Made by a program: the position numbers and the translations under genes
The notes under the pieces: model-generated
Told to the model about the DNA's origin: nothing
The model's database searches: none
What the model saw: the letters and a program-made list of their open reading frames with translations, nothing else
Shown here: piece after piece, positions 5,982 through 40,145 of the stretch
Numbering within the stretch: position 1 is the stretch's first letter
How the letters are laid out: each line of letters begins with the position of its first letter
IMG/VR virus record: IMGVR_UViG_3300010222_000002
Coordinates: 1 to 64,000 of that record
DNA: 64,000 nt
Strand: one strand, 5' to 3'
Source of the DNA: a virus

Positions 5982-6105
5982 AGTTGGTTGTGTCCCGCCA
6001 CCTCAGTCTCGCTGACTGGGGACGGTTTCGGGACACCGGAGAATACTCTCCGTTATAGGACTCAAAGCTCTATGCTTTAATTCTTTTTATCTGCAAGTGT
6101 CGTAC

Positions 6106-6273
6106 CTACCTGTCACCGTCAGTCTGTCGTCTAATTCTTTCTGCTACTGCTTTTCGTCGGTCGCGGGTCATCAGTGGGTCTGATACGTTCACCACGTCAG
6201 TTTCGAGAAGGGTCACGAGTTTTTCGATGGTGTCGGTACGAAGCTCTACGGTCTTTGTCTCAGGCATTGGCAT
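6106..6273 (-). CDS. small hypothetical protein (55 aa), possibly ribbon-helix-helix
   Basis: Hand-translated MPMPETKTVELRTDTIEKLVTLLETDVV...; ATGA overlap with the upstream stop at 6273. Confidence 0.4.
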   Translation of the reverse strand: MPMPETKTVELRTDTIEKLVTLLETDVVNVSDPLMTRDRRKAVAERIRRQTDGDR

Positions 6274-6503
6274 CAGTCGGTTTGTTCTTCAGGTAACGGA
6301 CCGCAGAGAACCATTGCATCCCCTTCTCCAGTAGTAGACTTTTCAGGCGATGGGTCTTGGGGGAGAACATTCGTCAACGGCTGGACGATAGTATCGCCGT
6401 CTTCTCCGTAGGCCATTATCTCAACTTGAGCATCTGGCTTTTTGTCTCGTAGTGCTACTCTTAGGTCACGAACTGTGTATTCGATATATTCTGGTCTTGG
6501 CAT
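6273..6503 (-). CDS. hypothetical protein (76 aa)
   Basis: Track ORF, acidic, co-oriented. Confidence 0.55.
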   Translation of the reverse strand: MPRPEYIEYTVRDLRVALRDKKPDAQVEIMAYGEDGDTIVQPLTNVLPQDPSPEKSTTGEGDAMVLCGPLPEEQTD

Positions 6504-6510
6504 TGGTTAG

Positions 6511-6705
6511 TTAGGGACGCTGGTTGAAGTGTAGGTAGTACCGGGCGATCCCTTCCGGCGCATCAGGGTCTTCGTGAACGTCGTAGATTTTTCTGAGGCG
6601 AACGTCGGTTCCTCGGCCCGTCTTCTCTATCACTGCCTCTACTCCACAGTCACAGACAGGACAGGTATCGTTCTCGGTTAGGTTTCGGAAGCCGTCAGTC
6701 TTCAT
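6511..6705 (-). CDS. small Cys-containing protein (64 aa)
   Basis: Track ORF trimmed to MKTDGFRNLTENDTCPVCDCGVEAV... (ATG 6703-6705, ATGA overlap with the stop of the nuclease gene). Confidence 0.5.
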   Translation of the reverse strand: MKTDGFRNLTENDTCPVCDCGVEAVIEKTGRGTDVRLRKIYDVHEDPDAPEGIARYYLHFNQRP

Positions 6706-7703
6706 AGGCCCTCGGTCGAAGGACAGACATTGTAGAACCAACACATCCCGTCGCCCCAGTGACAGAGGTTCTGCGGTTCGAAGTCGAAGTTTTCGGGGAC
6801 GCCTTGTTCGTCCAGTTCACCGGGCCGCTCCTGCATCCCAAGCACCGCCTTCTTGATGTCGAATCGGCGTTCTTTCACGCCGTATTCCCCGACCACTAAT
6901 TCGTCGTTCTTGGGATAGTAGATTGCCACGGCGTCGATGTCGTAAACGTGTTCGGCCATCCAGCCATAGTATTCGCACTCAAGGAACACTTCGTCCATCA
7001 CATCATCGAGGAACGGAGCGCCCTCGTACTTCACCTTCGGACAGGAGCCGGTCTTGTAGTCGAGAATGGTGACACCCGAGCCGGTCACGCCGGGAACGCT
7101 GGCGCTGTTGAGAATAACGTCAGCTTTACCCATCCACGGGATGTCACCGATAGGAGGCCCATCGGGGTTAACGTAGTCAGGATCGCCCTCATAGCCGTTT
7201 GGTGGCTCTCCGAGCCAAAACTCAGCTTCGACTTCCAGCGGTTCCCACGCCCTCACCGTTGCCTCACTGTCGAGGTCGAGGTCGCGGGTCGGGAGCCGGG
7301 CGGCGGCGAAGTCGTAGGTGCGCTCTGTCTCGTTCCAACGACGTTCCTCAAATTTCCAGAACGATTGTAGATATTCTAACCATTGTGTCTCATTACCAGT
7401 GTTGGGTATTAGTGGTGTGAAACGTTCAGGCTTGTCGCCGTTCTCAGCGATGTATTCTTTCAGGTTTTCGTGGAACTTCTCGAAGATAAGATGGACACGA
7501 GAGCCACGTTCTGTCGCCATCGTACCGGGAGGTCGATGCTCTGCCCAATACTTCAGGTAGAATTTGAACGGACACTGCTTGTACGTCTTGATCCGCGACT
7601 TCGAGACGTAATCGAGTCCGTTTTCTCTTTTTTCGTCTGACGCTTCAAGTTCGGTTCCGGGGTCAATCCCAGCTAAGGTTGTATCAGTGTGTACTTCAGT
7701 CAT
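6702..7703 (-). CDS. PD-(D/E)XK nuclease, Cas4/RecB-like with Cys cluster
   Basis: N-terminal YKQCPFKFYLKYW, an ILDYKTG (D-x-K) motif, and C-terminal CHWGDGMCWFYNVC. This is the Cas4-type arrangement of one N-terminal and three C-terminal cysteines. Confidence 0.75.
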   Translation of the reverse strand: MTEVHTDTTLAGIDPGTELEASDEKRENGLDYVSKSRIKTYKQCPFKFYLKYWAEHRPPGTMATERGSRVHLIFEKFHENLKEYIAENGDKPERFTPLIPNTGNETQWLEYLQSFWKFEERRWNETERTYDFAAARLPTRDLDLDSEATVRAWEPLEVEAEFWLGEPPNGYEGDPDYVNPDGPPIGDIPWMGKADVILNSASVPGVTGSGVTILDYKTGSCPKVKYEGAPFLDDVMDEVFLECEYYGWMAEHVYDIDAVAIYYPKNDELVVGEYGVKERRFDIKKAVLGMQERPGELDEQGVPENFDFEPQNLCHWGDGMCWFYNVCPSTEGL

Positions 7704-7893
7704 TGTCTAAGTCGGACTCCATTTCCTCGACGTGTTCCGTAATGTCCATTGCGTTTTCACCATCGAACTCTACGACCACACGCCCGCTTTCTTTCTTCTT
7801 CATGGCGGCTCTGAAGAGCAACTTTCTGAGGTTTTCCCGACCGAGAGCGTGGAAGATGAAGGCCCATTGTTTGTTTTGTTCGGTTTCGCTCAT
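7696..7893 (-). CDS. hypothetical protein (65 aa)
   Basis: Track ORF; 8-nt overlap with the downstream gene. Confidence 0.5.
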   Translation of the reverse strand: MSETEQNKQWAFIFHALGRENLRKLLFRAAMKKKESGRVVVEFDGENAMDITEHVEEMESDLDND

Positions 7894-8045
7894 CGTTTAT
7901 TCATCACTCTGGATAGCTTTCTCGACCGTTGACTCCGTGGTTCGAAGTCCGGGGTTTCTTCGAGAAGGGCGGCAGTCTCCGAAATCTTTTGTTCGACACG
8001 AACGGCGACGGTTTCGATTTCTTTTTCCAGATCATTGTTCGTCAT
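7890..8045 (-). CDS. small hypothetical protein (51 aa)
   Basis: Hand-translated MTNNDLEKEIETVAVRVEQKISETAALLEETPDFEP...; ATGA overlap with the next gene. Confidence 0.35.
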   Translation of the reverse strand: MTNNDLEKEIETVAVRVEQKISETAALLEETPDFEPRSQRSRKLSRVMNKR

Positions 8046-8247
8046 CGAGCATTTCTCCCAGTTCTTTGAGCATCAGTGGGATGTCGTTCGTTGTGAAGAA
8101 CAACTTCAACTCCCACGTACTCAACTCTTCATCGAGTGCATCTCCTTCGAATTCTTCTTGAATCTCTCCGATTTCATTTTTCAGTTCCCGCGCCTGTTCC
8201 TCGTTCAGTAACCGCTGGAGAACGGTTTCGGTGTCAGTTTCGGTCAT
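8032..8247 (-). CDS. hypothetical acidic protein (71 aa)
   Basis: Track ORF trimmed to MTETDTETVLQRLL... (ATG 8245-8247). Confidence 0.5.
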   Translation of the reverse strand: MTETDTETVLQRLLNEEQARELKNEIGEIQEEFEGDALDEELSTWELKLFFTTNDIPLMLKELGEMLDDEQ

Positions 8248-8545
8248 AGTGGAGTCGTGCGCCGTTTTCCGCGTAGCCTGCAATGTCGATGTAGTTGTCT
8301 TCGTGATAGTGCCCCTCTGAGTTCCGCGCCACCTTCAACAGGATCATCATATTCGCCACGTCTTCTGCGTCTAAGAACTCCTCCGAGAAGCCGACATAGG
8401 CGTTCCACATCTCGGCAATCTTCTCGAAAGTGTCCTCGGGTTTGCCGTGAGCATCTGGACGTTCGTAGACCGCCCTGATCGCGTCTTCGAGAACGTACGT
8501 CGTGTCGTCTTCCGGCTCGCCAACGTCAGTCGTCGGATGGTCCAT
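8234..8545 (-). CDS. hypothetical protein (103 aa), helical; tentatively like small phage nucleotide-pyrophosphohydrolase-associated proteins
   Basis: Track ORF. ...DVANMMILLKVARNSEGHYHEDNYIDIAGYA resembles a conserved small phage protein pattern. This rests on memory only. Confidence 0.5.
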   Translation of the reverse strand: MDHPTTDVGEPEDDTTYVLEDAIRAVYERPDAHGKPEDTFEKIAEMWNAYVGFSEEFLDAEDVANMMILLKVARNSEGHYHEDNYIDIAGYAENGARLHYDRN

Positions 8546-8741
8546 TGATGATTACCTCTTGGTCTATCAGCTTCTCTTCGGGTTGGACGTGTTTCTTCTC
8601 TCCTTCGAGAACCACTTCTTCGATGGCTTCACCTACGTCCATCCGGCCAGTCTGTTGTTTTATCATCTCTTCCTCTTCTTCGCTAAAGTCGATCTCCCAC
8701 GTTCGAGTAGCTGTGACTGTGTATGTTTGTTTTTCTTCCAT
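8526..8741 (-). CDS. hypothetical acidic protein (71 aa)
   Basis: Track ORF. Confidence 0.5.
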   Translation of the reverse strand: MEEKQTYTVTATRTWEIDFSEEEEEMIKQQTGRMDVGEAIEEVVLEGEKKHVQPEEKLIDQEVIINGPSDD

Positions 8742-8743
8742 TT

Positions 8744-9046
8744 TTAGTCGGTTCCGCGAACCACGTTTCCGTAGTTGAGTTTCTTTTCTTCCCTGTCGTC
8801 AGCGAATGACAGACGGAGAGTATCTACCATTGGCGGATCGTTGAATGATTCCACGTTCTCGAACGTTTCAAGAACCGTCTTTCCGCCGACAATCTCGTGT
8901 TCGACGTGGACGGTGAACGGCAAGTTTCACCAGTCGTGTGCTATCGGTTCCTGACGACAGGAGTAGAGAACTCCGTCGATAGTCAGGCTTAGTTTCGGCA
9001 CGATAGCTTCTCTGGTAACAGAGTCGATGTCAAATTGTGGTATCAT
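8744..9046 (-). pseudogene. 101-codon frame interrupted by a single in-frame TGA (39 codons + TGA + 60 codons)
   Basis: Codon-by-codon reading gives MIPQFDIDSVTREAIVPKLSLTIDGVLYSCRQEPIAHDW, TGA at 8927-8929, then NLPFTVHVEHEIVGGKTVLETFENVESFNDPPMVDTLRLSFADDREEKKLNYGNVVRGTD and TAA. The ATG is preceded directly by GAGACACAACC. Confidence 0.4.
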
Positions 9047-9064
9047 GGTTGTGTCTCACACGGG

Positions 9065-9409
9065 TCAGTTGTCCGGCGGTTCGGGCGACCCGACCCGCAT
9101 GATTGTCTCGTCGCCTACGAACTCTTTCGGCGTTACTGCTTTATCGTCTACATATTCATCAGCACCCCCTTTACCGCATTTCAGGCCGTGATAAGGGACT
9201 TCATGGATTGTAAGCCAACCTACTATTTTCGGAGCTTCGCGCCACTTCCGGGCAGTCCAGATGATGACCTGATGTCCGTTCCGGTAAGCGTTTTGAACGG
9301 CTTCGATTACCGGACTGTTCGGCTCTTGCTTGTGGGCTTCGCTCCACTCGTCGGTATCGGGATCGGTCAGCGTCTTGTCGAAGTCAACGGCAAGCAGTTC
9401 ACGTCCCAT
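9065..9409 (-). CDS. HAD-superfamily phosphatase-like protein
   Basis: LAVDFDKTLTD (DxDxT nucleophile motif), IIWTARK, and a C-terminal GGADEYVDDKA acidic motif. Confidence 0.65.
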   Translation of the reverse strand: MGRELLAVDFDKTLTDPDTDEWSEAHKQEPNSPVIEAVQNAYRNGHQVIIWTARKWREAPKIVGWLTIHEVPYHGLKCGKGGADEYVDDKAVTPKEFVGDETIMRVGSPEPPDN

Positions 9410-9807
9410 CAGTCAGTAACCTTGAACCCCGACTGTTCAGATTGGTTGACCAGCACAGAAACTTTGGAGCCATCGCCATCCTCGATGATAATCGGACTGT
9501 CCGAAATTGATGCACCACTATCGATTCTATACTCGATTGGGACTGCTATTTTTCCTTCGTTTCGCCATCGTGAACCGACCATCAACTCCCCGCAATCGAC
9601 ACAGTATTTCTCTTTCTGTCGGAGAGAGTCAAAGACGAGGAACCCTTCTTCAACTCTCGGAGATTCAACTTTTTCTACAGTTGAGTCTGTTTTTGACCAT
9701 TCAGTTTCGCTGTGGTCACATCTACTGTTGACTCTTTCTCCGTAAGTTGATTCTTTATCGACTAACGGTACCCCGCTTCGCCACGGGAGCCACTTATTCC
9801 AGTTCAT
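9409..9807 (-). CDS. hypothetical protein (132 aa)
   Basis: Track ORF trimmed to MNWNKWLPWRSG... (ATG 9805-9807); contains CVDCGE. Confidence 0.5.
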   Translation of the reverse strand: MNWNKWLPWRSGVPLVDKESTYGERVNSRCDHSETEWSKTDSTVEKVESPRVEEGFLVFDSLRQKEKYCVDCGELMVGSRWRNEGKIAVPIEYRIDSGASISDSPIIIEDGDGSKVSVLVNQSEQSGFKVTD

Positions 9808-10114
9808 TTTTGATTTCTCTCTTGGCTGTCTTTCGGTCTTTACCGCTCTGTTCGGCTTCGAGAAGGGCCTGCGCCTCTGCTCCAGAGTAGTCTTCAACGT
9901 GGACTTGCTCTTGAATCTCTCCGACTGTCAGCTTTTCTGGAGCGAACGGCGCGGCTGTCTCTTCTTCCCCACTCTCCCCCTTCTCGATGTCGATTCGCGT
10001 CAGAACACTGATGGTGTTATTGTTGACGCCCATGAAGGCGACAAATTCTCCATCAGGTTCTTCGAACGTTCTGCCGTGGTCATCGACTGTGCGTAGTGTT
10101 TCTTCTTTGAACAT
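9794..10114 (-). CDS. hypothetical protein (106 aa)
   Basis: Track ORF, acidic. Confidence 0.55.
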   Translation of the reverse strand: MFKEETLRTVDDHGRTFEEPDGEFVAFMGVNNNTISVLTRIDIEKGESGEEETAAPFAPEKLTVGEIQEQVHVEDYSGAEAQALLEAEQSGKDRKTAKREIKNELE

Positions 10115-10830: not shown

Positions 10831-10846
10831 TGTATAGTTTTAGGTT

Positions 10847-11179: not shown

Positions 11180-11247
11180 TGATAAATTAACGACCGACTA
11201 TACATACCTAACCAACGGGTAGGACTTAAATTCTTCGACTTCGAGTC

Positions 11248-15288: not shown

Positions 15289-16096
15289 TGTAGGTTGTGT
15301 CGGTTGGGATTTTTCGTTCTAATGCCGGTTCGGTGTCTGGCCCATCGGGGTAGAGCCAACTCCATAGCTTTTCGACTCCATGCTTCTGTCGGACGTAGAT
15401 ATACTGTTTTTCGTCTGTTTCAGTAACGTAACCGCCCGAGGGGAGCCACGAAAGTACCTTCTCAAACCGCTCTTTGTTTACACCTGTAATTTGGAAGGTA
15501 TCATAAGAAGCAAGATGACCGTCTCCGTCATACAGACCACGAACGAACGCGGCCCGAAGTCTGTCTGATTCTAACTCAGGAAGGGCGGGGGAGAACGTCT
15601 TGTCTCTGTCACAACCACAGTCCCGAAGGTCGTCAGCCATCTTTTCGCTGGTAATTGTAATGTCATGCGTGCCGTCTTTCTGCTCCTTAACTCCGTATTC
15701 CGCATCGACTGCTTTCTTGAACGCAACGACGTGTTCCCGGTCAATCAGACAGAGTGATACTATGTGAGAGTTAGAATTTCCACGGACGTAGACTGCCCCA
15801 TCAGCGTACAGCATACCGAGCCAGTACGCTTTTTCGGTATTGTCTATCTCGGAGAAGTAGGACTCATTGACAGGCAACTTTCCGTTTTTCCGTTTGTCAT
15901 CTACCCCCGCAAGCCGCTTTGCTCGCGTCCACGTTCCGAAGTGGTTTTCGAGCGTACTGGTAGAGGGGCCGTCCATCTCACCAAATTCGTCATAAGTTGG
16001 CGGTCTTCCAAGCTTTTCGGTTGCGTTACGAATTGACTGAAGTCTTTCTTCGTCATCATATCCGTAACAGTAGTCTGTTTTTCTTTCGTATGCCAT
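15278..16096 (-). CDS. free-standing LAGLIDADG homing endonuclease (two motifs) with N-terminal helical repeat
   Basis: AYWLGMLYADGAV and FVRGLYDGDGHL. The N-terminal GRPPTYDEF...STLENHFGTWTRAKRLAG repeat also occurs on the HNH protein. The start is set at ATG 16094-16096; the track's GTG start is part of the GTGACACAACC box. Confidence 0.8.
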   Translation of the reverse strand: MAYERKTDYCYGYDDEERLQSIRNATEKLGRPPTYDEFGEMDGPSTSTLENHFGTWTRAKRLAGVDDKRKNGKLPVNESYFSEIDNTEKAYWLGMLYADGAVYVRGNSNSHIVSLCLIDREHVVAFKKAVDAEYGVKEQKDGTHDITITSEKMADDLRDCGCDRDKTFSPALPELESDRLRAAFVRGLYDGDGHLASYDTFQITGVNKERFEKVLSWLPSGGYVTETDEKQYIYVRQKHGVEKLWSWLYPDGPDTEPALERKIPTDTTYNDH

Positions 16097-16216
16097 TGGT
16101 TGTGTCACGCCACTTCACGGGCTGACGCCGGGTCCGTTCCGGGGAGGGAACAGACCCAAAGGCGGCCCGCGAAGCGGAAGAAGGTAGTTAGTTTCCGCGC
16201 TGTTCAGCCTACTACG

Positions 16217-16674: not shown

Positions 16675-16677
16675 CGT

Positions 16678-17814: not shown

Positions 17815-17944
17815 TGTTAGGTTGTGTCACGTCTCCGCATCGCCACTTTCGGTGCTGACGTGCTACACCTAAAGTGTTGAGGCGTGCCGCCTTGAGTCTT
17901 ATGGTATGACTCGAAGCAGGCAACTTCTACTCTTCACCTCAAGT

Positions 17945-18198: not shown

Positions 18199-18715
18199 CT
18201 TCCTCTTCTTCAGCTTCTCCATCATCAGATGTGAACGTCTTTTCTTTGACGCTCACCGATCCGCTTTCGTCGGCATCAGAGTCGGAACCAGAGTCAGAAT
18301 CATCATCTTGGGCCTGCATCCAGCTTACAGTGAGGTTTCCACCTACCACCGAAACCGGAACAGTTTTGCCTTCAATTTCTTCTATTTCGTCCATCCCGAT
18401 CTGGAAAAGATCGAGCATGTGAGTGAAGTGTGACGCCGGGTCGTCCCGACCCTCTGGTAGATCGAAGACCAGTCGTTGCTGGTTGTCGAACGGAACTCCT
18501 TTGACCGGAATAATGATCCGGGGATCGTTGAAGAATTCGCCAGCGTTGTCAACGATGTCAGGCTCACCGAGTGTTGCGGTCAGGTCGGTTTCCTGTAGCG
18601 CCTCGACTTCGGAGATAGCAGTCCGAACGGCTTCCGCACCGTTCGGGACTTCTGGTTCGTTTGTATTATTGAATGGGTTGATACGACTAATCACAGTTAG
18701 GATGTTGAGTGTCAT
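18191..18715 (-). CDS. hypothetical acidic protein (174 aa)
   Basis: Track ORF trimmed to MTLNILTVISRINPF... (ATG 18713-18715), preceded by GGAGACATAACC-TACCG. The longer track version would read through the tRNA-Gln gene. Confidence 0.6.
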   Translation of the reverse strand: MTLNILTVISRINPFNNTNEPEVPNGAEAVRTAISEVEALQETDLTATLGEPDIVDNAGEFFNDPRIIIPVKGVPFDNQQRLVFDLPEGRDDPASHFTHMLDLFQIGMDEIEEIEGKTVPVSVVGGNLTVSWMQAQDDDSDSGSDSDADESGSVSVKEKTFTSDDGEAEEEEDD

Positions 18716-18787
18716 CGGTAGGTTATGTCTCCGCCGTGGCGTCATTGGGGTGAGAAACCAGCCCGCAACGCCAGCTTGGACTGCCCA

Positions 18788-18860
18788 TAGTCCCGACGAG
18801 ATTCGAACTCGCGTCAGAAGGTTCAAAGCCTCCTATGATTGTCCACTACACTACGGGACT
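18788..18860 (-). tRNA. tRNA-Gln (anticodon UUG)
   Basis: Minus strand AGTCCCG-TA-GTGTAGTGGACAATCAT-A-GGAGG-CTTTGAA-CCTTC-TGAC-GCGAG-TTCGAAT-CTCGT-CGGGACT-A. The cloverleaf was drawn by hand. CCA is not encoded. Confidence 0.85.
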
Positions 18861-19134
18861 ACAGCAAGCCGTGGGTGCCGCTAACCTTCTGGTGGCCTAC
18901 CTCGTTCGCCCGAGGTCCACACTTCAACGGAACAGGCTTGAACTGTCTCGCTGTCGTGCATTACTCTCGTAGGGTTCGGACAAACGGTATTGTAGCGACC
19001 ACGCACCCAGTTCTATGATTTGTCATTCGGGTAATGGGGATTTTTACGTCTCTCGCTGGGCGTTGACCACACCTTCTTCTCAGTCGAGGACGAACGGGAA
19101 GTCCCGAGGGTTTCAGCCAGCGGGCCTTCTCGAA

Positions 19135-19210
19135 GGCCGGGAGCGGGACTTAGCACCCACGTCTCAGGCATCACAAGCCTGCAATCTTATCTATATTAGA
19201 CCATCCCGGA
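19135..19210 (-). tRNA. degenerate tRNA-like gene, His-like (GUG) anticodon loop; possibly a pseudo-tRNA
   Basis: Anticodon arm CAGGC-TTGTGAT-GCCTG and acceptor TCCGGGA/TCCCGGC. However, pair 1:72 is a mismatch, there is an extra nucleotide before the anticodon stem, and the T-loop is non-canonical and 8 nt long (GTGGG-TGCTAAGT-CCCGC). Confidence 0.35.
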
Positions 19211-19212
19211 AG

Positions 19213-19283
19213 TGAGAACGGGTGGATTTGAACCACCGTTCTGGCGTCCCAAACGCCAAATGATACCACTACACTACGTTCCC
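19213..19283 (-). tRNA. tRNA-Pro (anticodon UGG)
   Basis: GGGAACG...TGGCG-TTTGGGA-CGCCA...GGTGG-TTCAAAT-CCACC-CGTTCTC-A on the minus strand. Confidence 0.85.
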
Positions 19284-19501
19284 TCAAGTAATGTCTCCTT
19301 TTCTTTGATATGGGGTATCTCGGAGCAAGGCTCCCCTTCTCGATGGCTGATCCCCTTTATTCCCACACTGGGAGCGACCCAGTGCAGGGAAGGCCGTCAA
19401 GCGCGGCCTTTTCTAACAGCCCTCACTTTTCCTAAAACTGGCATCTCAGCCAGTTTGCCCCATTTCGTCAATGCGGTTGGCTGAATTTGGCTGTCAGTTG
19501 A

Positions 19502-19575
19502 AGCTGGAATCAGGACTCGAACCTGAGACTTCCATCTTACGAAGATGGGCCTCTGCCAAGCTGAGGTATTCCAGC
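19502..19575 (-). tRNA. tRNA-Thr (anticodon CGU)
   Basis: GCTGGAA-TA-CCTCAGCTTGGCAGAGG-C-CCATC-TTCGTAA-GATGG-AAGTC-TCAGG-TTCGAGT-CCTGA-TTCCAGC-T on the minus strand. Confidence 0.9.
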
Positions 19576-19957
19576 AAAACGAGGGTGGGCCTCGCCTAAC
19601 TTCCGGCCCGCAATATGGGCCTCGGTGCCGTCATCCCGAGCGGCACGCCTATCGGTTCGCCCGACAGGATTCTGAGCTACACCAGCCTGAAAACGGGGCG
19701 ACCAGCCCCGTGAATCCCAACCGAAAGTGGGCGGGACACAACCTCCCGAGGTGAAACCCTCGGACCTGACGATACAGCCCACTCTCGGATAAATGTTGAG
19801 AGTGACCGGGAAAAGGCCCCGGCTGTTAGGTCTGTATCGGGTCAGCGGCCCGTAGGGATTCCGACCCCGGAATGGAGATCAGCGAGCGGCGGTAGCCTGT
19901 CTCGCCCATCTCCCTACTACACTTGACAACGCCCATTGTCTTAAAGATGGCGATTTC
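19576..19957. ncRNA. ORF-free, hairpin-dense region upstream of the tRNA cluster (probable tRNA-operon leader or ncRNA)
   Basis: A chain of perfect 5-7 bp stems: GTGCCG/CGGCAC, GGGGC/GCCCC, CCGAGG/CCTCGG, CCGGG/CCCGG, CTCTC/GAGAG, GGAGAT/ATCTCC, GGGTC/GACCC. An AAGACTC motif in minus orientation lies at 19958-19965. Confidence 0.4.
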
Positions 19958-20050: not shown

Positions 20051-20638
20051 ATGGCTGAGAGCGACCCGAATACCCGGAAAAAACATAAGAATAAAGAGAA
20101 AACTGTAAAGTGTCCGGTCGAAGGTTGTGAGAAAGAAGTCTTATCACGCGGCCTCCATCTACACGTCAGTAGGTCTTCGGGGGGCGGTCACGGTACCCAA
20201 GGTGAGATACCAGATGATATTGATTTAGAAGACGCAGAAGAAGTTGGAAAACGGGAGGTGGAGATGGAATATCCCGAATCCAGAAGCTCCGAGCAAGTAG
20301 CTCGATTATGTCCATATTGTGAACGCCCGTTCCGTGGTAAGCACGGAGTGATGATCCATCTCGGGCAGACTGCTGGACGGAAAAACCATCCAGAAGATGC
20401 TTCTGAACGCCACGATCTTGATGATTTTGCCATTGTTGAGGTTGACGAGAACGAAAATATTATAGAAATTATTGATGAAGAGTCTTCACTCCCTGCTACT
20501 GAACGGAGACAAGAGGGTGAAGACTCTGGACCTGCATCTCTCGAACGCGAGAAGGTCGAAGAATATATCGACGGTCTTCGTGAGCAGGGTCTTGAGAAAG
20601 AAGCCGAGAAAGCTGAGAAAATGCTACTCGGTGAGTGA
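20051..20638 (+). CDS. C2H2 zinc-finger protein (putative DNA-binding regulator)
   Basis: Two C2H2 units, CPVEGCEKEVLSRGLHLHV and CPYCERPFRGKHGVMIHLGQ. The start is set at ATG 20051; the track start at 20015 is GTG. Confidence 0.55.
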   Translation: MAESDPNTRKKHKNKEKTVKCPVEGCEKEVLSRGLHLHVSRSSGGGHGTQGEIPDDIDLEDAEEVGKREVEMEYPESRSSEQVARLCPYCERPFRGKHGVMIHLGQTAGRKNHPEDASERHDLDDFAIVEVDENENIIEIIDEESSLPATERRQEGEDSGPASLEREKVEEYIDGLREQGLEKEAEKAEKMLLGE

Positions 20639-22621: not shown

Positions 22622-23764
22622 TTACCAATTATTTTCGGCTTGTTCTTTCCGTTTATTTGATGCGGATTTTGTGTATCGTTTTGTTGTCTCCAGTTTCTTG
22701 TGACGGAGTTGGACTCGGGCTTCGTTCAGGTCTACTCGGTCTGCCCACATTGTTGCCGCCCCCCTCCTTATCGAGTACCACGTCAGTTGTCTATTTCGTG
22801 GTTTGATGTCGGTCAGATCGAGAAGGGTATCGAGCAGGCTGTTAAGTGACCACGATTCGTAGCCGTTGCCGTATTTTGTTAACCAGATAGATTCACTATC
22901 ATCGTATTTTTCATACCCTCGTCGCTCTTCAAGCCACCGTTCTAATGCTCTAACGGAGCGAGACGAGAGAACGCACTCCCATGTGTCATCGCTTTTTGAT
23001 GCTTCATCCTTCGGGACGACTACCTCTTGGTTATCCAATTGAAGCCAGTGGGTGTTCGCCCGTTTGATCTCGATGGGGCGGAGTCCAAGGTCGATGCTTA
23101 TAGCGATAAGGGAAGGGAATTTCCATGAGTTTGCGTCGGCGAAGTCATCTGGCCCGATGTCAGTTTTCTTTTTCCCCAACCGCTGTGCAAGAGTCGCTTT
23201 GAGTCTGTCTCGTTCGTCGGGGTTGACTGTCCGGTAGCTCTTCATTGACCCGTACTCGATAGCGGCGTTGTAGAGCGAGTTCATCTCGTCGCGCTTGAAG
23301 TAATGCTGTCGCTTGCTCGCTCCTTGCTGTTCGAGTTGGCCGATTTTTGAGTATTCCCAGTCGTACCGTTTGCCACCCGTATCGCTGAACCACCTAAAGA
23401 GCCGTTTGATGGCTTTGATATAGTCGCGCACTTCTCGATCTTTGAGCGTTGTTTCTGATACCAGCTTGTCTATCAGTGATTCGGCATCGCCGGGAGTGAA
23501 CGTTTTCGTAAACTCATCGGCTTGTTGCCATTTCCAGCGATAGGCTTTTTCAATTTTGTAGTGGGTAGTTTTGACTGTACTTTGAGCGTAGCCGTCTCCC
23601 TTGAAGGGATTTTTCCCTTTCTGATGAAGCCAAATGAGGAAGTCCTCTTTGTACCCTTCATATTCGTCAGTGTAGATTGGTGCAAACCGTTCGAGTGCTT
23701 CTCTGTTGTGTTTGCTGACGGGGGGTAATTGAATGGTTGTGTCGTCGGTATCGGTGTCGAACAT
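22622..23764 (-). CDS. int: tyrosine recombinase / integrase
   Basis: Box I is LGLRPIEI. Box II is WYSIRRGAATMW...LRHKKLETTKRYT, which carries the catalytic Tyr. The N-terminal region is SAM-like. The leader ends GGGAAACCACC-ATG. Confidence 0.8.
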   Translation of the reverse strand: MFDTDTDDTTIQLPPVSKHNREALERFAPIYTDEYEGYKEDFLIWLHQKGKNPFKGDGYAQSTVKTTHYKIEKAYRWKWQQADEFTKTFTPGDAESLIDKLVSETTLKDREVRDYIKAIKRLFRWFSDTGGKRYDWEYSKIGQLEQQGASKRQHYFKRDEMNSLYNAAIEYGSMKSYRTVNPDERDRLKATLAQRLGKKKTDIGPDDFADANSWKFPSLIAISIDLGLRPIEIKRANTHWLQLDNQEVVVPKDEASKSDDTWECVLSSRSVRALERWLEERRGYEKYDDSESIWLTKYGNGYESWSLNSLLDTLLDLTDIKPRNRQLTWYSIRRGAATMWADRVDLNEARVQLRHKKLETTKRYTKSASNKRKEQAENNW

Positions 23765-23876
23765 GGTGGTTTCCCACCGAAGCAGTGAACGGTGTAATGT
23801 TACCCAAGACCCTGTGAGTCTTTATTTCGTGGATAGCTGTACCGGAAAATGCGGAAACCGCCGCGTAGCGGCGTTA

Positions 23877-36358: not shown

Positions 36359-36360
36359 GA

Positions 36361-36579
36361 TTAATAACAGTCTCCGCAGTAGTGATCGGTCCGATACGCC
36401 GCCGAAATTGGTTTCTGATACGTGTTTTCAATAGCCTGTTCGTCGGTCATCTTCAAGCCACAGTCGTAGCAGAAACGGACTGTGACTTCATATGGATTGC
36501 ATCCACAATGCTTACAGACCGAACCGTTTAGCGGTCTGTTGCATCGAGGACAGTCTTCTGCTTTCTCAAGTGGGTTCAT
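36361..36579 (-). CDS. zinc-finger protein (72 aa)
   Basis: CPRCN...CKHCGC...FCYDCG...YCGDC. Preceded by a leader of about 140 nt ending GGGACACAACC-TTCCG-ATG. Confidence 0.55.
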   Translation of the reverse strand: MNPLEKAEDCPRCNRPLNGSVCKHCGCNPYEVTVRFCYDCGLKMTDEQAIENTYQKPISAAYRTDHYCGDCY

Positions 36580-36736
36580 CGGAAGGTTGTGTCCCGTTCT
36601 GCACCGAAGCCGTGGGCATCATCCGACACCGCACCGGTGTCTTCGAGGGTCGAGGCGGCTATCTCTCAACCGAGGGAGTCAGACTTCCCTTTCGCCCATT
36701 CAAAGAATCAAAGCCTGCTGAGTTAAGTCTTCTGCA

Positions 36737-36913
36737 TCAGACTACCACTGGTGGGGTGTCGAAGGTCGTCCAAACCTCCGACTGTTGGGCCTCGATAAGG
36801 GCGGCGTTGTGGTCGAGTCGGACCTTGAAGGGGTCGCCCTCGGAAACGACCCGACCTTCTCGGACCGGACAACTGGGTTGCTTCACGTAGACGAAGGTTC
36901 CTTCAGTTATCAT
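36737..36913 (-). CDS. small hypothetical protein (58 aa)
   Basis: Trimmed to MITEGTFVYV... (ATGA overlap). Confidence 0.4.
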   Translation of the reverse strand: MITEGTFVYVKQPSCPVREGRVVSEGDPFKVRLDHNAALIEAQQSEVWTTFDTPPVVV

Positions 36914-37173
36914 CAGTTGTAGAGTTCCGCTTTGTTTTCGATCCACTCTGCCGCTTCATTGAGGTCAGCCGACTCCAGAAGGAGGCGACCGCCCACTTCG
37001 TATCCGGTTTGACTGTCTCGAACGTATATCGAAGCGCCATCTCGGTACACTTCAACTCCCTGATGGTCGAACTGTTCTACCATTCCATCTTTCATCGCAC
37101 CGAGAAGGCCGATAAGTCTCTCGTGTGGGTTCGGTTCAGCTATCGCTACCGTTTTCTTTGGCGTCTTTCTCAT
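36913..37173 (-). CDS. hypothetical protein (86 aa)
   Basis: Track ORF. Confidence 0.5.
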   Translation of the reverse strand: MRKTPKKTVAIAEPNPHERLIGLLGAMKDGMVEQFDHQGVEVYRDGASIYVRDSQTGYEVGGRLLLESADLNEAAEWIENKAELYN

Positions 37174-37185
37174 TGTTAGATCGAA

Positions 37186-37350
37186 TCAGTCTTCGCTGTC
37201 TTCGTATTGGTCGTGAGTCTCTTCAGTGTCGGGACTGGGGATTGTATAGTCCGGGTTAACCGCCTCAGTTACCGCATCTCGCTGATTGCTATCAGTTTGA
37301 TGCTCCCAATTGTCGTCGTTGTATTGGTGGCTTCGGGGGTCGTCAGTCAT
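37186..37350 (-). CDS. small acidic protein (54 aa)
   Basis: Trimmed to MTDDPRSHQYNDDNW.... Confidence 0.4.
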   Translation of the reverse strand: MTDDPRSHQYNDDNWEHQTDSNQRDAVTEAVNPDYTIPSPDTEETHDQYEDSED

Positions 37351-37552
37351 TGTTTCGGAGAATCCGCTTCGCTTCACTCACTGAACAGTCGAACCGCTCC
37401 ACTACTTCTAACACCGCCCTGTCAGATGGTTCTTCACTCATCTGACTCACCACCGGTGAGCATTTTCCCGTATTTCGTTTTCTCCCTCTTCGACTCCCGT
37501 TTCGCCTCTTTGACCTCTTCTTTTGTCTCGTCGTCCAGAGCGTCTTCGAGGT

Positions 37553-37741
37553 TCATTCTTCCTCACCCCAAGCTGGAGCCATCTCAGGCTTCGGATCGGG
37601 GTGGTCTACCGCCGGGTCTTCGCCGCTGAAGTCGAAGTCCGGCGAAGAGAGTGCCGGGTCGATCTCGAACTCGGGATCTTCTTCGTCTCGGTCATCTGCC
37701 GGTGCCACTCCGTAACTTTGGAGTTCGCTTTCAGTTTGCAT
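37553..37741 (-). CDS. small acidic protein (62 aa)
   Basis: Track ORF; the leader carries GAGACATAAC 13 nt before the ATG, and an AAGACT/AGTCTT pair lies at 37881-37910. Confidence 0.5.
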   Translation of the reverse strand: MQTESELQSYGVAPADDRDEEDPEFEIDPALSSPDFDFSGEDPAVDHPDPKPEMAPAWGEEE

Positions 37742-37916
37742 CGTCGTTCCTCTCAGTTATGTCTCGGGAAGGGGCGGCGAGTCGTAGGCCGAAGCCCCCT
37801 TCTTGACTTCGACCCGAAAGCTCGGTTTTGCTCATGGAGCAACGGGGTCGTCAACCCTACCGAACAAAACGCAGTTGGTTAAGACTTAATTCATGCCGTC
37901 TTGAGTCTTTTGGCTG

Positions 37917-39011
37917 TTAGCTCTGTACTGCTTCTACCGCCTCCTCCGGGGACTGGCCCTTCGACTCGACGCGGAACCGAACCGCATCAGCTTCCATACC
38001 CTCGAAGCCATAGGCTTCGATAACCTCCTCGACGTTTGGCTCTTCGTCGCCGTCGCCACCATCGTTCTGAAGAGCGTTCCGACGCTCTTTTAGTCGGGTC
38101 ATGGCACCCTTCCGGGTGTTTTCGGAGTCGCTTTCGACCCGAAGCATGGTCTGGATAGCTCGAAGGTTGGTGATGTTTGTCACCGAAAGCTCTTTGGGAC
38201 CCTGACCCCGAAGATCGCTCACGTTTACTTCGGTGACTCTCTCCGGGTTAGCGGCGAGGTTGAAAACCTCGTCGTCACCAGAGTCAGCTTCGCTGTCGTC
38301 CCCAGCGACCTCTTCGGGGTCCGTTCCGCCGTCATTCTCGAAGACTTCAGGGTGGCTCGAAGCCACCAGTCCGTCTTCTTCGGTCCAGTGCGACGGTTCG
38401 TCAGGGACCTGCTGGAGGATTTCGAGAGCTTCGAGGACTTCGTTGCCCTTTTCGACGGCGATGGGAAGTCGCTCGCCGTCAACCACCAGAAGCTTTGGTC
38501 CACCGTAGGTGGTGTCGAAGCCGACTTCCGAGGGGTCAATGCCCATCTCTTCGAGGCTTTCACGCTCTCCGCCGTCCAGACCTTCCCACTGCACCGAAGG
38601 GAGGTCGTTGAAGTAGAGAGCGTAACTGAAGTCCACTGAGTTGTGAAGGCCATCATCGTCGTGGCTCTCAGGAACCGTCCCATCGACCAGCCCGATGCTG
38701 TGGTCGGCGTCTCTTTGCATCTTCCCGGCGGTGGACTTTGCCAGCGAAGCCACCATTTGAAGCCTCTGCTGGGGATGAGCATCGCTGTACTCGCCGAGAA
38801 GCCTCGAAGCATCTTCGAGAGTGTCGTCGCTGTAAATCTTCAGCGGTTCGAGATCGAGAGCTTCCAGCATCTCGCCGAGAAGTGACTTCCAGTCTCCGAG
38901 GGAGAGGTAGATTTCAGGGACTTCACTTGAAGTGAACTCCGGCGTCTCTTCGGTGTCTTCGGTGGTCTGTTCCTCGTCGTCGGCTGTCTCGACTGCGAAA
39001 TCGAAACTCAT
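37917..39011 (-). CDS. hypothetical acidic protein (364 aa)
   Basis: Track ORF trimmed to ATG 39009-39011 (MSFDFAVETADDEEQ...); the track start is GTG. It shares a 32-nt exact repeat with 31135-32046. Confidence 0.6.
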   Translation of the reverse strand: MSFDFAVETADDEEQTTEDTEETPEFTSSEVPEIYLSLGDWKSLLGEMLEALDLEPLKIYSDDTLEDASRLLGEYSDAHPQQRLQMVASLAKSTAGKMQRDADHSIGLVDGTVPESHDDDGLHNSVDFSYALYFNDLPSVQWEGLDGGERESLEEMGIDPSEVGFDTTYGGPKLLVVDGERLPIAVEKGNEVLEALEILQQVPDEPSHWTEEDGLVASSHPEVFENDGGTDPEEVAGDDSEADSGDDEVFNLAANPERVTEVNVSDLRGQGPKELSVTNITNLRAIQTMLRVESDSENTRKGAMTRLKERRNALQNDGGDGDEEPNVEEVIEAYGFEGMEADAVRFRVESKGQSPEEAVEAVQS

Positions 39012-40145
39012 TGGTTCTAAATTGTCACCCACTTCGTAGAGTGACCTCACGTTCCTTGTTGTTTTCCGGAAGGAAAAGTCGGGGTCGGGGGCCGGAGGCT
39101 CTTATAAATTCCACCTTCGACCCTAACCGACTCAGCAATCTCTCGGCTTTGCCAGTTGCGTGACTTCATCGCCGTAAGGACTGTTCTTTTTCTCTTGAAG
39201 AACTCTCGCTCTCGCTTTGCTTCACAAGATTGAGTCTTCAGAAAGGTAATTCCTCCCTGAAGTGAGTCCCGTTGCGCCAGTTGTTTGAGGGTTCCACGTA
39301 ATTCGCTTCGCCCCGTCTCCAGTAACTCCACACTGAACCGGACACCGACCCCTCTCGGGACCTTTGTTCAGGCTTCAACGTCCTGTTTTCCGTGGCAGTC
39401 TTTGGCTCCGTCACGGTGTCATCGTGACCCTTCTGAGTCGTTCGGTCTTCGTGAGCTTTCAAGAGGTCGAAGGGTGTGAACCTCCTGAATCACTATTTCG
39501 GGTCCCCTTTCACTGCGAAAGGCTCCTACCGTCTCGCTTTTCGGTGGAAAAGAGACTGGCGGCACCCTGCCGTAGCCCAAGAATCTTAGCGTGAGCTTCG
39601 AGTCTTAGACCACGAAGGTCCGTAATGGGGCGTTCACTTCTGCCGAAGTGCAATCCCTCGATACCTCGACCCTGACATGGGTCTTCAATACTAACGTGAG
39701 TCTTCTGCCTTCGCCCCTTAGTCGCCAAAGGCTCACTTCTCTGCCCTTCTACCGTTCAGGGCGCAAAGTCACCGTCGGGTTTCCTCACGCGGCGTTTTCC
39801 GAAGACCGCGACATGAACTTACAAACACGAAGGGTTTCGGGACGAACTCGGCGAAGGGCATCGGGGTAATTCCCCGCTTCGCCTTTAGATATTCGGCGGC
39901 TCCTGACACGCCCTCGGTCATTCCGAAGTACACTGGAACCGTCCCGCTTGTTTCAAGCCCGGTCAAAGGCTACCATTTGCCCCCTTCGCCGGGGTAATGC
40001 CCCTTTGAAGGAGATTGCATCGTGCAAAGGCCCTGAAAGGCCCTTCGTCCCTCTTATTCTTATAAAAGAACAGGGGAGAACCCCCCGAGACACACCGACA
40101 CTGCCCCGCGTGTGTGCCCGGAGAGTTTCGCTTGCCTGCGAGACG
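39012..40145 (-). ncRNA. long ORF-free, hairpin-rich region; candidate long leader or ncRNA locus read on the minus strand
   Basis: There is no ATG ORF of 60 aa or more; the track ORFs here start at GTG/TTG and are basic. Three AAGACTC motifs in minus orientation lie at 39232, 39600 and 39698. A duplicated promoter module at 40145-40200 predicts a start near 40141-40147. Confidence 0.4.

Follow-up and report, generated by a model that had tools for sequence, protein, structure and literature searches.

A short C/A-rich sequence, GGGACAYAACC, stands immediately before the start codon in about a dozen early genes of a tailed virus of haloarchaea, and the question it raises is what reads it. In the window, i.e. 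the whole 64,000-nt stretch of DNA analysed, there are five exact matches against 0.05 expected, and 11 copies of the 9-nt core GACAYAACC against 0.98 expected, a number reached by none of 100 shuffles. Ten of the 11 core copies lie on the minus strand and one on the plus strand; nine of the ten are followed within 0-5 nt by an ATG that opens an ORF, 39-472 aa long. The box is genuine and conserved. The preliminary description had assigned it to at least 13 genes, of which about 11-12 sites are solid; those at 23765 (GGGAAACCACC) and 39015-39033 resemble the box only weakly and are not counted. For the others its coordinates and spacers are correct:

5986..5999, minus strand: box GGCGGGACACAACC, 4 nt before ATG 5981 of a 54-aa ORF, the first gene of the PolB-containing unit
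9047..9057, minus strand: box GAGACACAACC, adjoining ATG 9046 (0 nt) of a 39-aa ORF, in an 18-nt intercistronic gap
15293..15311, minus strand: box AAUCCCAACC-GACACAACC, 4 nt before ATG 15288 (472 aa), within the 3' end of the upstream gene
16098..16120, minus strand: box with upstream block, CCGUGAAGUGGCGU-GACACAACC, 1 nt before ATG 16096 (272 aa)
17820..17857, minus strand: box with upstream block, CCGAAAGUGGCG...GACACAACC, 5 nt before ATG 17814 (378 aa)
18721..18731, minus strand: box GAGACAUAACC, 5 nt before ATG 18715 (174 aa), ~55 nt downstream of tRNA-Gln
27129..27140, minus strand: variant box GGGAACAUAACU, 1 nt before ATG 27127 (83 aa)
29154..29168, minus strand: box GGUGGGACACAACC(U), 1 nt before ATG 29152 (443 aa)
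31009..31019, minus strand: box GGGACAUAACC, 4 nt before ATG 31004 (41 aa)
32047..32061, minus strand: variant box GGUGGGACAAAACC with C-to-A, adjoining ATG 32046 (0 nt; 303 aa)
36579..36596, minus strand: box CGGGACACAACCUUCCGA, extending into ATG 36579 (72 aa; spacer of 5 nt when the box is taken from 36585), the first gene of the HSP90-like unit
37755..37765, minus strand: variant box GAGACAUAACU, 13 nt before ATG 37741 (62 aa)

Two exact core copies had escaped the preliminary description. One, at 23735, lies within the integrase ORF with no ATG after it; the other, at 19733-19743 on the plus strand, is the only exact copy in reverse orientation in the window and reads GGUUGUGUCCCGCC on the early-gene strand.

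The distance from box to AUG is usually 0-5 nt, rarely up to 16 nt, and the box is predicted to be unpaired (0.73 vs 0.46 for the rest of the leader), which holds at 19 of 20 sites. It is often lengthened to GGCGG-GACACAACC-UUCCGA, and several sites retain one half of this longer sequence, left (GGCGGGACAC..) or right (CACAACCUUCC). Only ~12 of the 30 genes that follow a gap in the window carry a box, and the plus-strand late genes lack it, as had been noted. The ATG of genes without a box is also preceded by an A/C-rich context, e.g. (T)AACA or ACC.

The box was found before ATGs in every related genome fetched, down to 38-43% protein identity, and its core is invariant in every relative examined. 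In the cultured Mincapvirus HSTV-2 it precedes independently annotated CDS starts; the site before CDS58 is orthologous to that at 9047, as are L004 17815 and L005 18200, and the layout at 18721 recurs as tRNA-Gln, box variant, and ATG. In the orthologs of the 29154 site (L001 9971 and L002 9637) the box is retained, and the spacer and flanks are changed. Enrichment of the box was also looked for in HF2, with none seen.

The box could be read in DNA, as an operator, initiator, or roadblock site, with its reverse copy serving a divergent promoter region, and that copy does lie in a divergent intergenic region packed with inverted repeats, including CACTCTC..GAGAGTG and GATACAG..CTGTATC. Such a role is very improbable in view of the extreme strand bias relative to the genes, the adjoining ATG, and the boxes located in an intercistronic gap and within coding sequence. 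Nor is there a TATA-like element at the distance expected for transcription starts at the box or ATG, an A/T-rich hexamer at -45..-18 being absent at 12 of 14 box sites; the earlier view that the box is no part of a promoter is thereby upheld. Promoter repeats resembling the HF2 IR, situated 87-168 nt upstream, place the box within transcribed leaders.

Some of these leaders also contain ribozyme-like elements:

27146..27210, minus strand: type II hammerhead ribozyme, leader of the 27127 gene (RF02276, 28.3 bits against a gathering score of 37; E = 3.7e-4 on 181 nt)
31027..31091, minus strand: type II hammerhead-like element, leader of the 31004 gene (RF02276, 33.6 bits against a gathering score of 37; E = 1.7e-5 on 201 nt)

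The first has a complete core (GAAA, UC cleavage site, and CUGACGA), while in the second A9 is absent or U, and loop I pairs with the 3' tail as a pseudoknot. The boxes at 27129 and 31009 lie directly 3' of them, an altered form precedes 36585, and hammerheads stand ahead of several boxes in L001 and L002. The 'HHphage' hammerhead of HF1/HF2 and its saltern variants (Perreault et al. 2011, PMC3088659) are likewise of type II and lie a few nucleotides ahead of the gene that opens an early transcription unit; that of HF2 has the tail GACCAGACACC and stops 13 nt short of the helicase ATG. Here, in contrast, the box is outside the ribozyme, 3' of the pseudoknot tail, and is present without a hammerhead too, while HF2, which bears HHphage, has no box enrichment. 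The occurrence of several boxes after hammerheads or IR-like promoter repeats, together with the resemblance of the reverse copy to a degenerate hammerhead module, might make the box a passive remnant of duplicated leader cassettes with no function of its own. We regard this as hardly credible, since the box is kept amid diverged surroundings even in the genomes of 38-43% protein identity, its distance to the AUG is constrained, and the 9047 and 15293 boxes have neither hammerhead nor IR.

What, then, recognizes the box in the mRNA? The preliminary description proposed a translation-initiation signal, distinct from a Shine-Dalgarno sequence. The latter point stands, as pairing with two haloarchaeal rRNA operons (16S-23S-5S, two genera) gives a longest run of 7 including G.U, the level of shuffled boxes. 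Of the former, the location in RNA and the association with start codons hold, but direct reading by the translation machinery is unsupported. In full, that proposal would make the box a cis-acting initiation or enhancer element, a C/A-rich unstructured landing site on leadered SD-less mRNAs, the reverse copy being unrelated or secondary. The tight placement before the AUG, the predicted single-strandedness, and the A/C-rich context of non-box genes agree with it, and an invariant core across distant lineages would suit a conserved host partner. Haloarchaea also translate SD-less 5' UTRs by a mechanism given as unknown (Kramer et al. 2014, cited in PMC8707807). We nevertheless find it doubtful. 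Complementarity to the rRNA of the two genera is at chance, and HF2 infects the same host genus without the box, so the host does not require it. Moreover, a cis element leaves unexplained the unique conserved reverse copy, the tiling of a 23-nt complement by box variants, and the lineage-specific extra complementarity described below.

The box has its exact complement in a single element, small and unannotated, that resembles an RNA gene and lies near the virus tRNA genes; its strand, ends, and expression are predicted from sequence:

19787..19796, minus strand: TATA-like element ACATTTATCC, a putative promoter for the unit of anti-box RNA and tRNAs, lying within the inverted repeat CACTCTC..GAGAGTG
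19690..19777, minus strand: candidate small RNA ('anti-box RNA'), ~80-95 nt
19745-19764, minus strand: hairpin 1 of the anti-box RNA
19730-19743, minus strand: its seed, or anti-box, GGUUGUGUCCCGCC
19712-19739, minus strand: its middle hairpin
~19694-19711, minus strand: its hairpin 2, followed by UUUU at 19690-19693
18787..19575, minus strand: tRNA cluster (Thr, Pro, His, Gln), downstream of the anti-box RNA

The order TATA-like element, hairpin 1, anti-box, middle hairpin, hairpin 2 with U-run, and tRNA genes is conserved, and the layout is kept in synteny in L001, L002, L005, L006, L007, L011, L036, L226, L227, L241-L245, and HSTV-2. There is exactly one reverse copy in the window and one, syntenic, in each relative covering the region; in the window it lies in a divergent intergenic region adjoining tRNA genes, and an ATG never follows it. 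In six cultured Mincapviruses the element is 96.7-100% identical and unannotated. A (C/T)TTA(T/A) element is found 48-61 nt upstream of the anti-box in eight of nine genomes, and in L001, L002, L005, L006, and L007 a tRNA gene begins 2-6 nt past the U-run. The hairpin stems covary across lineages (e.g. CCGAGG/CCUCGG, GAGGGC/GCCCUC, GGGGC/GCCCC, and GGACGGG/CCCGUCC), with two G.U pairs possible on the anti-box strand only. Folding z-scores do not favour that strand (-1.6 to -2.9, and -2.0 to -3.7 for the opposite one), and its advantage in raw energy is compositional. The divergent gene has a proximal IR-like promoter of its own, so its mRNA excludes the reverse copy. The 18-nt form of the anti-box had no match in the haloarchaeal genomes among 185,579 species representatives.

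Between two covarying hairpins the anti-box RNA carries (C)CUCGG(G/A)A-GGUUGUGUC-CCGCC, the exact complement of the extended box, and the box variants of HSTV-2 and the window tile distinct sub-windows of its 23-nt complement GGCGGGACACAACCUUCCGAGGG. At 36 of 43 sites the predicted contiguous duplex ends no more than 5 nt from the AUG. It spans 14 nt at 5986..5999, 15 nt at 29154..29168, and 18 nt at 36579..36596, the last being the top RNAduplex match across the minus-strand transcript space. Complementarity extends beyond the box as well: AAUCCCAACCG of the 15293 site perfectly complements CGGUUGGGAUU in the tail of the window sRNA, and the upstream block at 16098 complements its segment CCGCCCACUUUCGG, orthologous leaders following their own sRNA. 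Between the 17820 leader and the cognate tail the Watson-Crick match is 11 nt long, and it reaches at most 8 nt with the tails of other genomes. The block shared by the 16098 and 17820 leaders (..GAAAGTGGCG), which the preliminary description had rightly pointed out, is accounted for by the putative sRNA too, whose next segment it complements. Over 64 leaders and 16 sRNAs, extra complementarity to the tail of the own genome's sRNA exceeds that to non-cognate tails (permutation p = 0.001), with 11 perfect cognate matches of at least 9 nt against 2.07 expected; by RNAduplex energy the sites of the window do no better with the cognate sRNA. Lineage-specific matched changes occur in L241 (CCGAAGUGACGCGG with CCGCGUCACUUCGG) and also in L242, L007, and HSTV-2. 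Extended matches behave like base pairing with wobble (in HSTV-2, for instance, UUAAUGGCGG with CCGCCGUUAG), which is a further argument against a DNA-level site.

Since the core is invariant everywhere, it offers no box/anti-box covariation to score. Core substitutions are mostly C-to-U, compatible with wobble; A-to-G was not seen, while two G-to-A and one C-to-A were, which leaves the wobble argument equivocal. The plus-strand reading of the element bears a weak likeness to a degenerate hammerhead-plus-box leader (18 bits), so the complementarity could stem from an inverted duplication, and the matched flanks could come from copying instead of selection for pairing.

An invariant motif overlapping the initiation regions of many early genes is also what an RNA operator for a viral RNA-binding protein would give, be it a translational regulator like T4 RegA, repressing or activating, or an endoribonuclease with site specificity, and the related viruses encode many small CxxC/zinc-finger proteins of unknown function (PMC7230728). 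A protein would be expected to demand a fixed core, yet several sites keep the left or right half only; nor does a protein explain why a conserved reverse copy lies within an RNA-gene-like unit, and no candidate protein was identified. This makes a protein operator distinctly unlikely.

As its sole perfect partner is a conserved viral reverse element resembling a small-RNA gene, the box is better read as an antisense-RNA target; this target overlaps the initiation region and is compatible with the translation-signal reading. On balance, the box is probably where an antisense sRNA encoded by the virus binds in trans to influence translation starts, which suggests that one viral RNA controls many genes at once. 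Such an sRNA would be made from the early-gene strand, from ~19777 to 19690 (minus) in the window, near the tRNA genes, and would bind (G)GGACAYAACC on early and middle mRNAs. Because the box is predicted to be unpaired and lies 0-5 nt before the AUG, the duplex of 9-20 bp would mask the loading region of the small ribosomal subunit. A single RNA would in this way co-regulate most leftward transcription units at their first cistron. The enrichment, position, and conservation of the box, its complementarity with the lineage-specific additions, and the gene-like build of the element are demonstrated; transcription from that strand, pairing in vivo, and the sign of the effect are predictions. Repression by occlusion is the most likely outcome by analogy, and activation or guided processing may occur instead.

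A halovirus precedent for such an RNA is Tant of the Halobacterium phage phiH, which pairs with an early lytic transcript, the duplex being cleaved by a host RNase that attacks its ends (Stolt and Zillig 1993, as related in PMC8707807). Tant, as a cis-antisense RNA, is transcribed from the strand opposite its only target, which it overlaps by 151 nt. The element described here has a locus of its own and would be a trans-acting RNA, pairing with short sites on many different mRNAs. As in Shine-Dalgarno pairing, a short motif lies a few nucleotides upstream of start codons, the sites match varied sub-windows of one longer complementary RNA, and the frozen core would follow from the reliance of many sites on one partner. 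The partner is, however, a virus-encoded RNA and no part of an rRNA operon, and neither the late genes nor HF2, a related virus, have the box.

In bacteria, trans-acting sRNAs of the GcvB type use a G/U-rich seed to pair with C/A-rich elements at or upstream of the ribosome-binding sites of many mRNAs, and such an unstructured C/A-rich sequence can be a translational enhancer and an sRNA target at once. The resemblance lies in a single candidate small RNA with a predicted single-stranded G/U-rich seed (GGUUGUGU), many mRNAs with a C/A-rich target beside the start codon that may double as an enhancer, and predicted duplexes of 9-20 bp in variable register. Unlike GcvB, the anti-box RNA would belong to an archaeal virus, not a bacterial chromosome, shares no sequence or structural homology with it, is predicted from sequence, and has targets without a Shine-Dalgarno sequence. 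The likeness drawn here is based on GcvB as reportedly described by Sharma et al. in 2007.

The c4 RNA of phages P1/P7 and the CI RNA of P4 are, like the candidate, small phage-encoded RNAs with short repeated sites on phage transcripts. They pair with these transcripts and keep lytic or early functions down. The lineage studied here is also temperate-capable, given its integrase gene and the provirus-like contig L243. The c4 and CI RNAs address a single operon at one or two sites, partly via transcription termination, whereas here the start codons of a dozen separate genes would be involved, in an archaeal host and with no homology. RNase P carries out the maturation of both c4 and CI. Since a tRNA gene lies 2-6 nt after the element in five genomes, this enzyme could also set the 3' terminus of the anti-box RNA.

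The window belongs to a contig of 73 kb (GenBank WGS set LMAX01) from a haloarchaeal tailed virus. It encodes an intein-bearing family B DNA polymerase (a 1342-aa ORF at 1183-5211, minus strand, with the Hint/intein-like insert at residues ~606-995), a large terminase, and an integrase, and its HSP90-like protein of 946 aa shares ~40% identity with its counterparts in the Mincapviruses HSTV-2, HRTV-7, HRTV-11, and HCTV-6. DNA near-identical to the window was not found in the phage collection. The early and middle genes are read leftward (minus strand, 1-41650) and the late genes rightward from 42900, with a small divergent module and a tRNA cluster located at ~18.8-22.6 kb.

The sequence GGGACAYAACC, referred to here as the box, precedes the start codons of many minus-strand early genes. 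The 11-mer occurs five times in the window against 0.05 copies expected, and its 9-nt core GACAYAACC 11 times against 0.98 expected, a number reached in none of 100 shuffles, so that the observation of the preliminary description is borne out. Ten of the core copies lie on the minus strand, nine of them followed by an ATG after 0-5 nt, and each box-following ATG opens an ORF of 39-472 aa. The coordinates and spacers reported for the sites were all correct, but two entries, 23765 and 39015, are merely weak resemblances, and two exact core copies had been overlooked, one at 23735 within the integrase ORF and the other at 19733-19743 on the plus strand. The plus-strand late genes of the window do lack the box, as had been stated, and it is present in ~12 of the 30 post-gap genes. 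At most gene starts of either strand, box-less genes still have an A/C-rich stretch immediately ahead of the ATG, e.g., TAACA-ATG or ACC-ATG, due in part to overlapping stop codons of the upstream gene.

An identical core was found before ATGs on the early-gene strand in all the relatives fetched by means of two proteins (contigs L001, L002/L004, L005, L006, L007, L225-L227, and L241-L245), even at 38-43% protein identity. In HSTV-2 (KC117376), a cultured Mincapvirus, the box directly precedes the independently annotated starts of CDS 102, 90, 83, 80, 58, and 47, and its variants those of CDS 89, 67, 93, 98, and 69. The spacer between box and AUG is 0-5 nt long in 31 of 43 sites from 11 genomes. 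Between orthologous leaders the box persists even where its flanks, or the spacer itself, have changed; the 443-aa gene, for example, has a spacer of 1 nt in the window vs 12 nt in L001. No enrichment of the box is seen in HF2, a Haloferacalesvirus infecting the same host genus. The box thus represents a sequence element that is under strong selection and specific to the lineage. One relative, L243, carries cellular genes (for UbiA, enoyl-CoA hydratase, cupin, and phosphoribosyltransferase, 1-5700) immediately left of the integrase. L243 looks like an integrated provirus, and the lineage is thus probably temperate.

The box is not part of an archaeal core promoter, which consists of BRE/TATA at ~-26 to -35 and an initiator at +1. 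For a leaderless or short-leader transcript an A/T-rich TATA element would be expected ~25-30 nt ahead of the start, but in 12 of 14 sites the interval -45..-18 contains no hexamer in which 5/6 or more positions are A/T. Promoter-like IR repeats TAAGACTTAAC..AAGTCTTAGG are found 87-168 nt upstream of five box-bearing ATGs, which would place the box within the transcribed leader, in agreement with the earlier view that it is no promoter component.

IR-like repeats upstream of box-bearing ATGs
~29235-29265, minus strand, TAAGACTTAAC..AAGTCTTAGG repeat
32137-32161, minus strand, repeat of the same kind
36725-36731, minus strand, repeat of the same kind
37887-37909, minus strand, repeat of the same kind
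17901, minus strand, repeat of the same kind

Compared by eye, these repeats resemble IR2 and IR3 of HF2. The class I intergenic repeat promoters of HF1/HF2 have conserved alpha/BRE/TATA/gamma motifs (..TAAGACTCAAAT..TTTAAGTCTTAGG..) and a mapped start site (PMC8707807).

With the Shine-Dalgarno sequence the box shares its distance from the start codon, but differs from it in complementarity to the 16S 3' end. When compared with the 16S 3' tail and with whole rRNA operons of Halarchaeum and Natrinema (plasmids), the longest run was 7, including G.U pairs, against a mean of 7.7 for shuffled boxes. Complementarity to these two haloarchaeal operons therefore does not exceed chance, and the rejection of a Shine-Dalgarno function in the preliminary description holds also for rRNA pairing elsewhere in the operons.

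Two of the box sites are directly preceded by elements resembling type II hammerhead ribozymes (RF02276; CUGANGA, GAAA, a UH cleavage site, and three stems; Rfam gathering score 37 bits), both with a pseudoknot between loop I and the 3' tail.

Type II hammerhead-like elements
27146-27210, minus strand, 28.3 bits (below the gathering score of 37), complete core
31027-31091, minus strand, 33.6 bits (below the gathering score of 37), A9 missing

The orthologous leaders of L001 and L002 have canonical hammerhead cores. A parallel to these elements ahead of some boxes is the hammerhead of HF1/HF2, which ends 13 nt before the helicase ATG (PMC3088659). The box itself is not a part of the ribozyme, as it lies 3' of the pseudoknot tail and occurs also at 9047 and 15293 with no ribozyme nearby. 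The leader of the gene at 36579 contains a further type II hammerhead (~36606-36697, minus strand), undetected by Rfam, whose catalytic core is split by a 22-nt hairpin (CGAAGACACCGGUGCGGUGUCG) inserted between U4 and G5; its L002 ortholog (~760-826) is canonical (CUGACGAU). Core insertions have been reported for saltern hammerheads, but not of such a size (PMC3088659). Other leader elements include a T-arm-like hairpin at 29202-29218 (minus strand) and at the matching place in the 32047 leader (GGGGTTCGATTCCCC / AGGGTTCGATTCCCT), flanked by covarying GUGAG/CUCAC and GGAUG/CAUCC. This tRNA-like minihelix, located close to the predicted 5' end in both leaders, gives a weak tmRNA match, and a similar element precedes HSTV-2 CDS 94.

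The plus-strand core copy at 19733-19743 is followed by no ATG for 308 nt, and an IR-like promoter lies near the start of the divergent gene at 20051, as is also the case for HSTV-2 CDS 71. Read on the early-gene strand, this copy is GGUUGUGUCCCGCC, i.e., the complement of the box (anti-box, or seed). Each of the relatives covering the region has exactly one anti-box locus, in the same place and with a common layout.

Layout of the anti-box element, in 5' to 3' order
Part 1, a (C/T)TTA(T/A) element 48-61 nt upstream
Part 2, hairpin 1
Part 3, the invariant (C)CUCGG(G/A)A-GGUUGUGUC-CCGCC
Part 4, a middle hairpin, using UCCC of the seed
Part 5, hairpin 2, followed by 3-5 U in most genomes (absent from the contigs L011 and L036)

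The element (window ~19777-19690, minus strand) looks, from its sequence, like a small RNA gene, that of a putative anti-box RNA. Features that a separate transcription unit, encoded away from its targets, would have are the TATA-like element 48-61 nt upstream, the hairpin with a U-run, and the single copy per genome. The hairpin stems differ wholly between lineages with their pairing retained; they were compared by hand, as the MAFFT alignment of the sRNAs is too poor in the hairpins for formal counting of pairs. In the six cultured Mincapviruses the region is 96.7-100% identical and bears no annotation. A tRNA gene of the same strand begins 2-6 nt past the element in five genomes, while in HSTV-2 the tRNA lies 245 nt further on, so that the unit stands alone there. 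The strand was tentatively assigned from the U-run and the promoter-like element, from the orientation of the tRNA genes, from two G.U pairs which form on the anti-box strand only, and from the lack of a promoter on the other strand. Raw folding energy is 3.8-8 kcal/mol better for the anti-box strand, but was discarded as strand evidence because z-scores from dinucleotide shuffling are, if anything, better for the opposite one. A cis-antisense RNA of the phiH Tant type was likewise rejected, as the targets (5986-37765) lie on the putative RNA's own strand, with the anti-box at 19733-19743. Read on the plus strand, the element bears a weak likeness (18 bits) to a leader with hammerhead plus box. 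Relatives do not conserve its CUGACGA. The anti-box gene may have arisen via inversion of a leader module.

Several minor observations concern the same locus. L005 (7262-7293) and L226 (4134-4166) have two tandem anti-box seeds, 14-15 nt apart, within one element. In the window, the anti-box U-run is immediately followed (~19576-19684, minus strand) by a tRNA-like 5' half (GCTGGTGTAGCTCAGAATCC), ~100 nt of GC-rich structured sequence, and another U-run before tRNA-Thr; no tRNA was detectable in this segment with introns allowed, and it gave a weak LAGLIDADG-2 RNA match. A scan of GTDB genomes with the anti-box gave nine chance bacterial matches and no copy in a haloarchaeal provirus or host, 12 of 13 metagenome matches to an 18-mer were due to chance, and an IMG/VR scan with CCTCGGAA-N9-CCGCCG gave chance matches among the matches listed. 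HF2 has the same succession between promoter IR2 and tRNA-Arg (18413-18508), i.e., a hairpin, a single-stranded stretch, a hairpin with UUUUU, and the tRNA, and the HF2 leader UUGGUGUCC complements, over 9-11 nt and as a single case, GGACACCAA (26350-26361) abutting the HrrHF2_295 ATG. As an out-group system HF2 was nevertheless set aside, since it has no box enrichment and its match count equals the chance expectation.

The complementarity of the anti-box to the 11-mer box is exact, and, depending on the site, the duplex continues leftward (GGCGG or GGUGG), rightward (UUCCGA or UUCC), or in both directions. Over the 43 sites of 11 genomes the contiguous duplexes are 9-20 bp long (median 11), and in 36 of these sites they end no more than 5 nt from the AUG. 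The box is predicted to be unpaired within the leader (0.73 vs 0.46, 19 of 20 sites). RNAduplex, run on the minus-strand RNA of the window with a 21-nt seed, placed box sites among the best five matches four times; a longer seed had proved too noisy, with GC-rich hairpin arms dominating. Degenerate sites retain different halves of the 23-nt complement GGCGGGACACAACCUUCCGAGGG, e.g., CACAACCUUCC before HSTV-2 CDS 93 and 98. Such tiling of variants is typical of pairing to one RNA, as in the case of Shine-Dalgarno variants, and not of a protein site. A second leader motif noted in the preliminary description (..GAAAGUGGCG) turned out to be complementary to the segment that follows in the putative sRNA (CGCCCACUUUC).

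Past the seed, the sRNA sequence (the tail) varies by lineage, and the leaders match their own version.

Lineage-matched leader and sRNA segments
L241, leader CCGAAGUGACGCGG vs tail CCGCGUCACUUCGG, perfect over 14 nt; elsewhere CGAAGUGGCGG vs CCGCCACUUCG
L242, GACGGCG vs CGUCGUC
L007, GUCCUACCG vs CGGUAGGAC
HSTV-2, GCCCUACCGGAACU vs AGUUCCGGUAGGGC
Window and L244, UCCCAACCG vs CGGUUGGGA

Among 64 leaders and 16 sRNAs, Watson-Crick runs are longer in cognate pairs, in which both partners come from the same genome, than in non-cognate ones (6.03 vs 5.39; label permutation p = 0.001), and perfect matches of at least 9 nt number 11 in cognate pairs vs 2.07 expected. An energy-based version of the test points in the same direction, the window's own sites having no cognate advantage. 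The same flank matches could also result if sRNA segments had been copied into leaders. Lineages with a variant core were sought for covariation of box and anti-box, but relatives down to 38-43% identity all keep GACACAACC, and classical covariation cannot be shown because the core never varies between them. Substitutions in the core across sites (~8 C-to-U, 2 G-to-A, 1 C-to-A, 0 A-to-G) are equivocal, the C-to-U majority being compatible with wobble pairing, yet A-to-G being absent. The box might otherwise be a protein operator, a DNA site, or a relic of repeated modules; each of these explanations is less consistent with the data, as each fits more poorly with the reverse copy of the box, the tiling of its variants, and the lineage-specific complementarity.

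In the best-supported reading, the anti-box RNA would pair with the unstructured box and cover the 10-20 nt that directly precede the first cistron's AUG in most leftward units, thereby controlling ribosome access. Repression would be the effect expected by default, by analogy with bacterial sRNAs and the phage c4/CI RNAs, and would fit early-gene shut-off, or silencing during a provirus or carrier state. An integrase is encoded in this lineage, and L243 looks integrated. An attractive alternative is activation, or guided cleavage where the duplex ends, which would yield near-leaderless mRNAs. Leaderless mRNA is the form best translated by haloarchaea, and the anti-box RNA might act as a guide for cleavage or as a stop to trimming, rather than as a plain repressor, although this is rather unlikely. 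The duplex reaching up to the AUG would then mark the leader for cutting by a haloarchaeal RNase at the duplex ends, or would halt 5'-to-3' trimming after hammerhead or tRNA processing, and by either route leadered or internal cistrons would give leaderless mRNAs. RNase cutting at duplex ends has been described for phiH (PMC8707807). As to the original proposal that the box is a cis-acting translation signal, it may coexist with control of ribosome access by the anti-box RNA.

Neither the box nor the anti-box RNA was described in the literature searched. Antisense control is known in phages and phiH; to our knowledge, no trans-acting small RNA addressing the start regions of multiple targets has been described for an archaeal virus, gene regulation beyond promoters in these viruses is almost unexplored, and translation start on leadered, SD-less mRNAs of haloarchaea is an open question. 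The predicted regulon would mean that a clade of haloarchaeal myoviruses, comprising the cultured Mincapviruses HSTV-2, HRTV-2, HRTV-7, HRTV-11, HCTV-6, and HCTV-15 and many uncultured relatives including the window, uses one small RNA to address most early and middle operons at their start regions. It would be an RNA regulon comparable to that of bacterial GcvB or phage c4/CI, and we know of no viral regulon of this kind in archaea. Should the RNA act as a guide, it would be an RNA-based master regulator switching a dozen operons on, or off in the provirus or carrier state, and the first multi-target trans-acting sRNA regulon to be described for any archaeal virus. The idea is directly testable, since cultured virus-host pairs carry both the motif and the RNA, each of them short and invariant, and if true it would provide a way into how translation starts at archaeal 5' UTRs. 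If it fails, the box is still a strongly conserved, unexplained pre-start signal.

The box can also be used to improve the annotation of start codons in genomes of this clade, as several CDS starts of HSTV-2 look mis-set relative to the box-ATG pair. Three exact boxes, each followed by an ATG, are located inside its annotated CDS 94, 96, and 101 (KC117376, 61082, 62221, and ~64017, minus strand), whose annotated starts may lie too far upstream, or which may contain internal starts.
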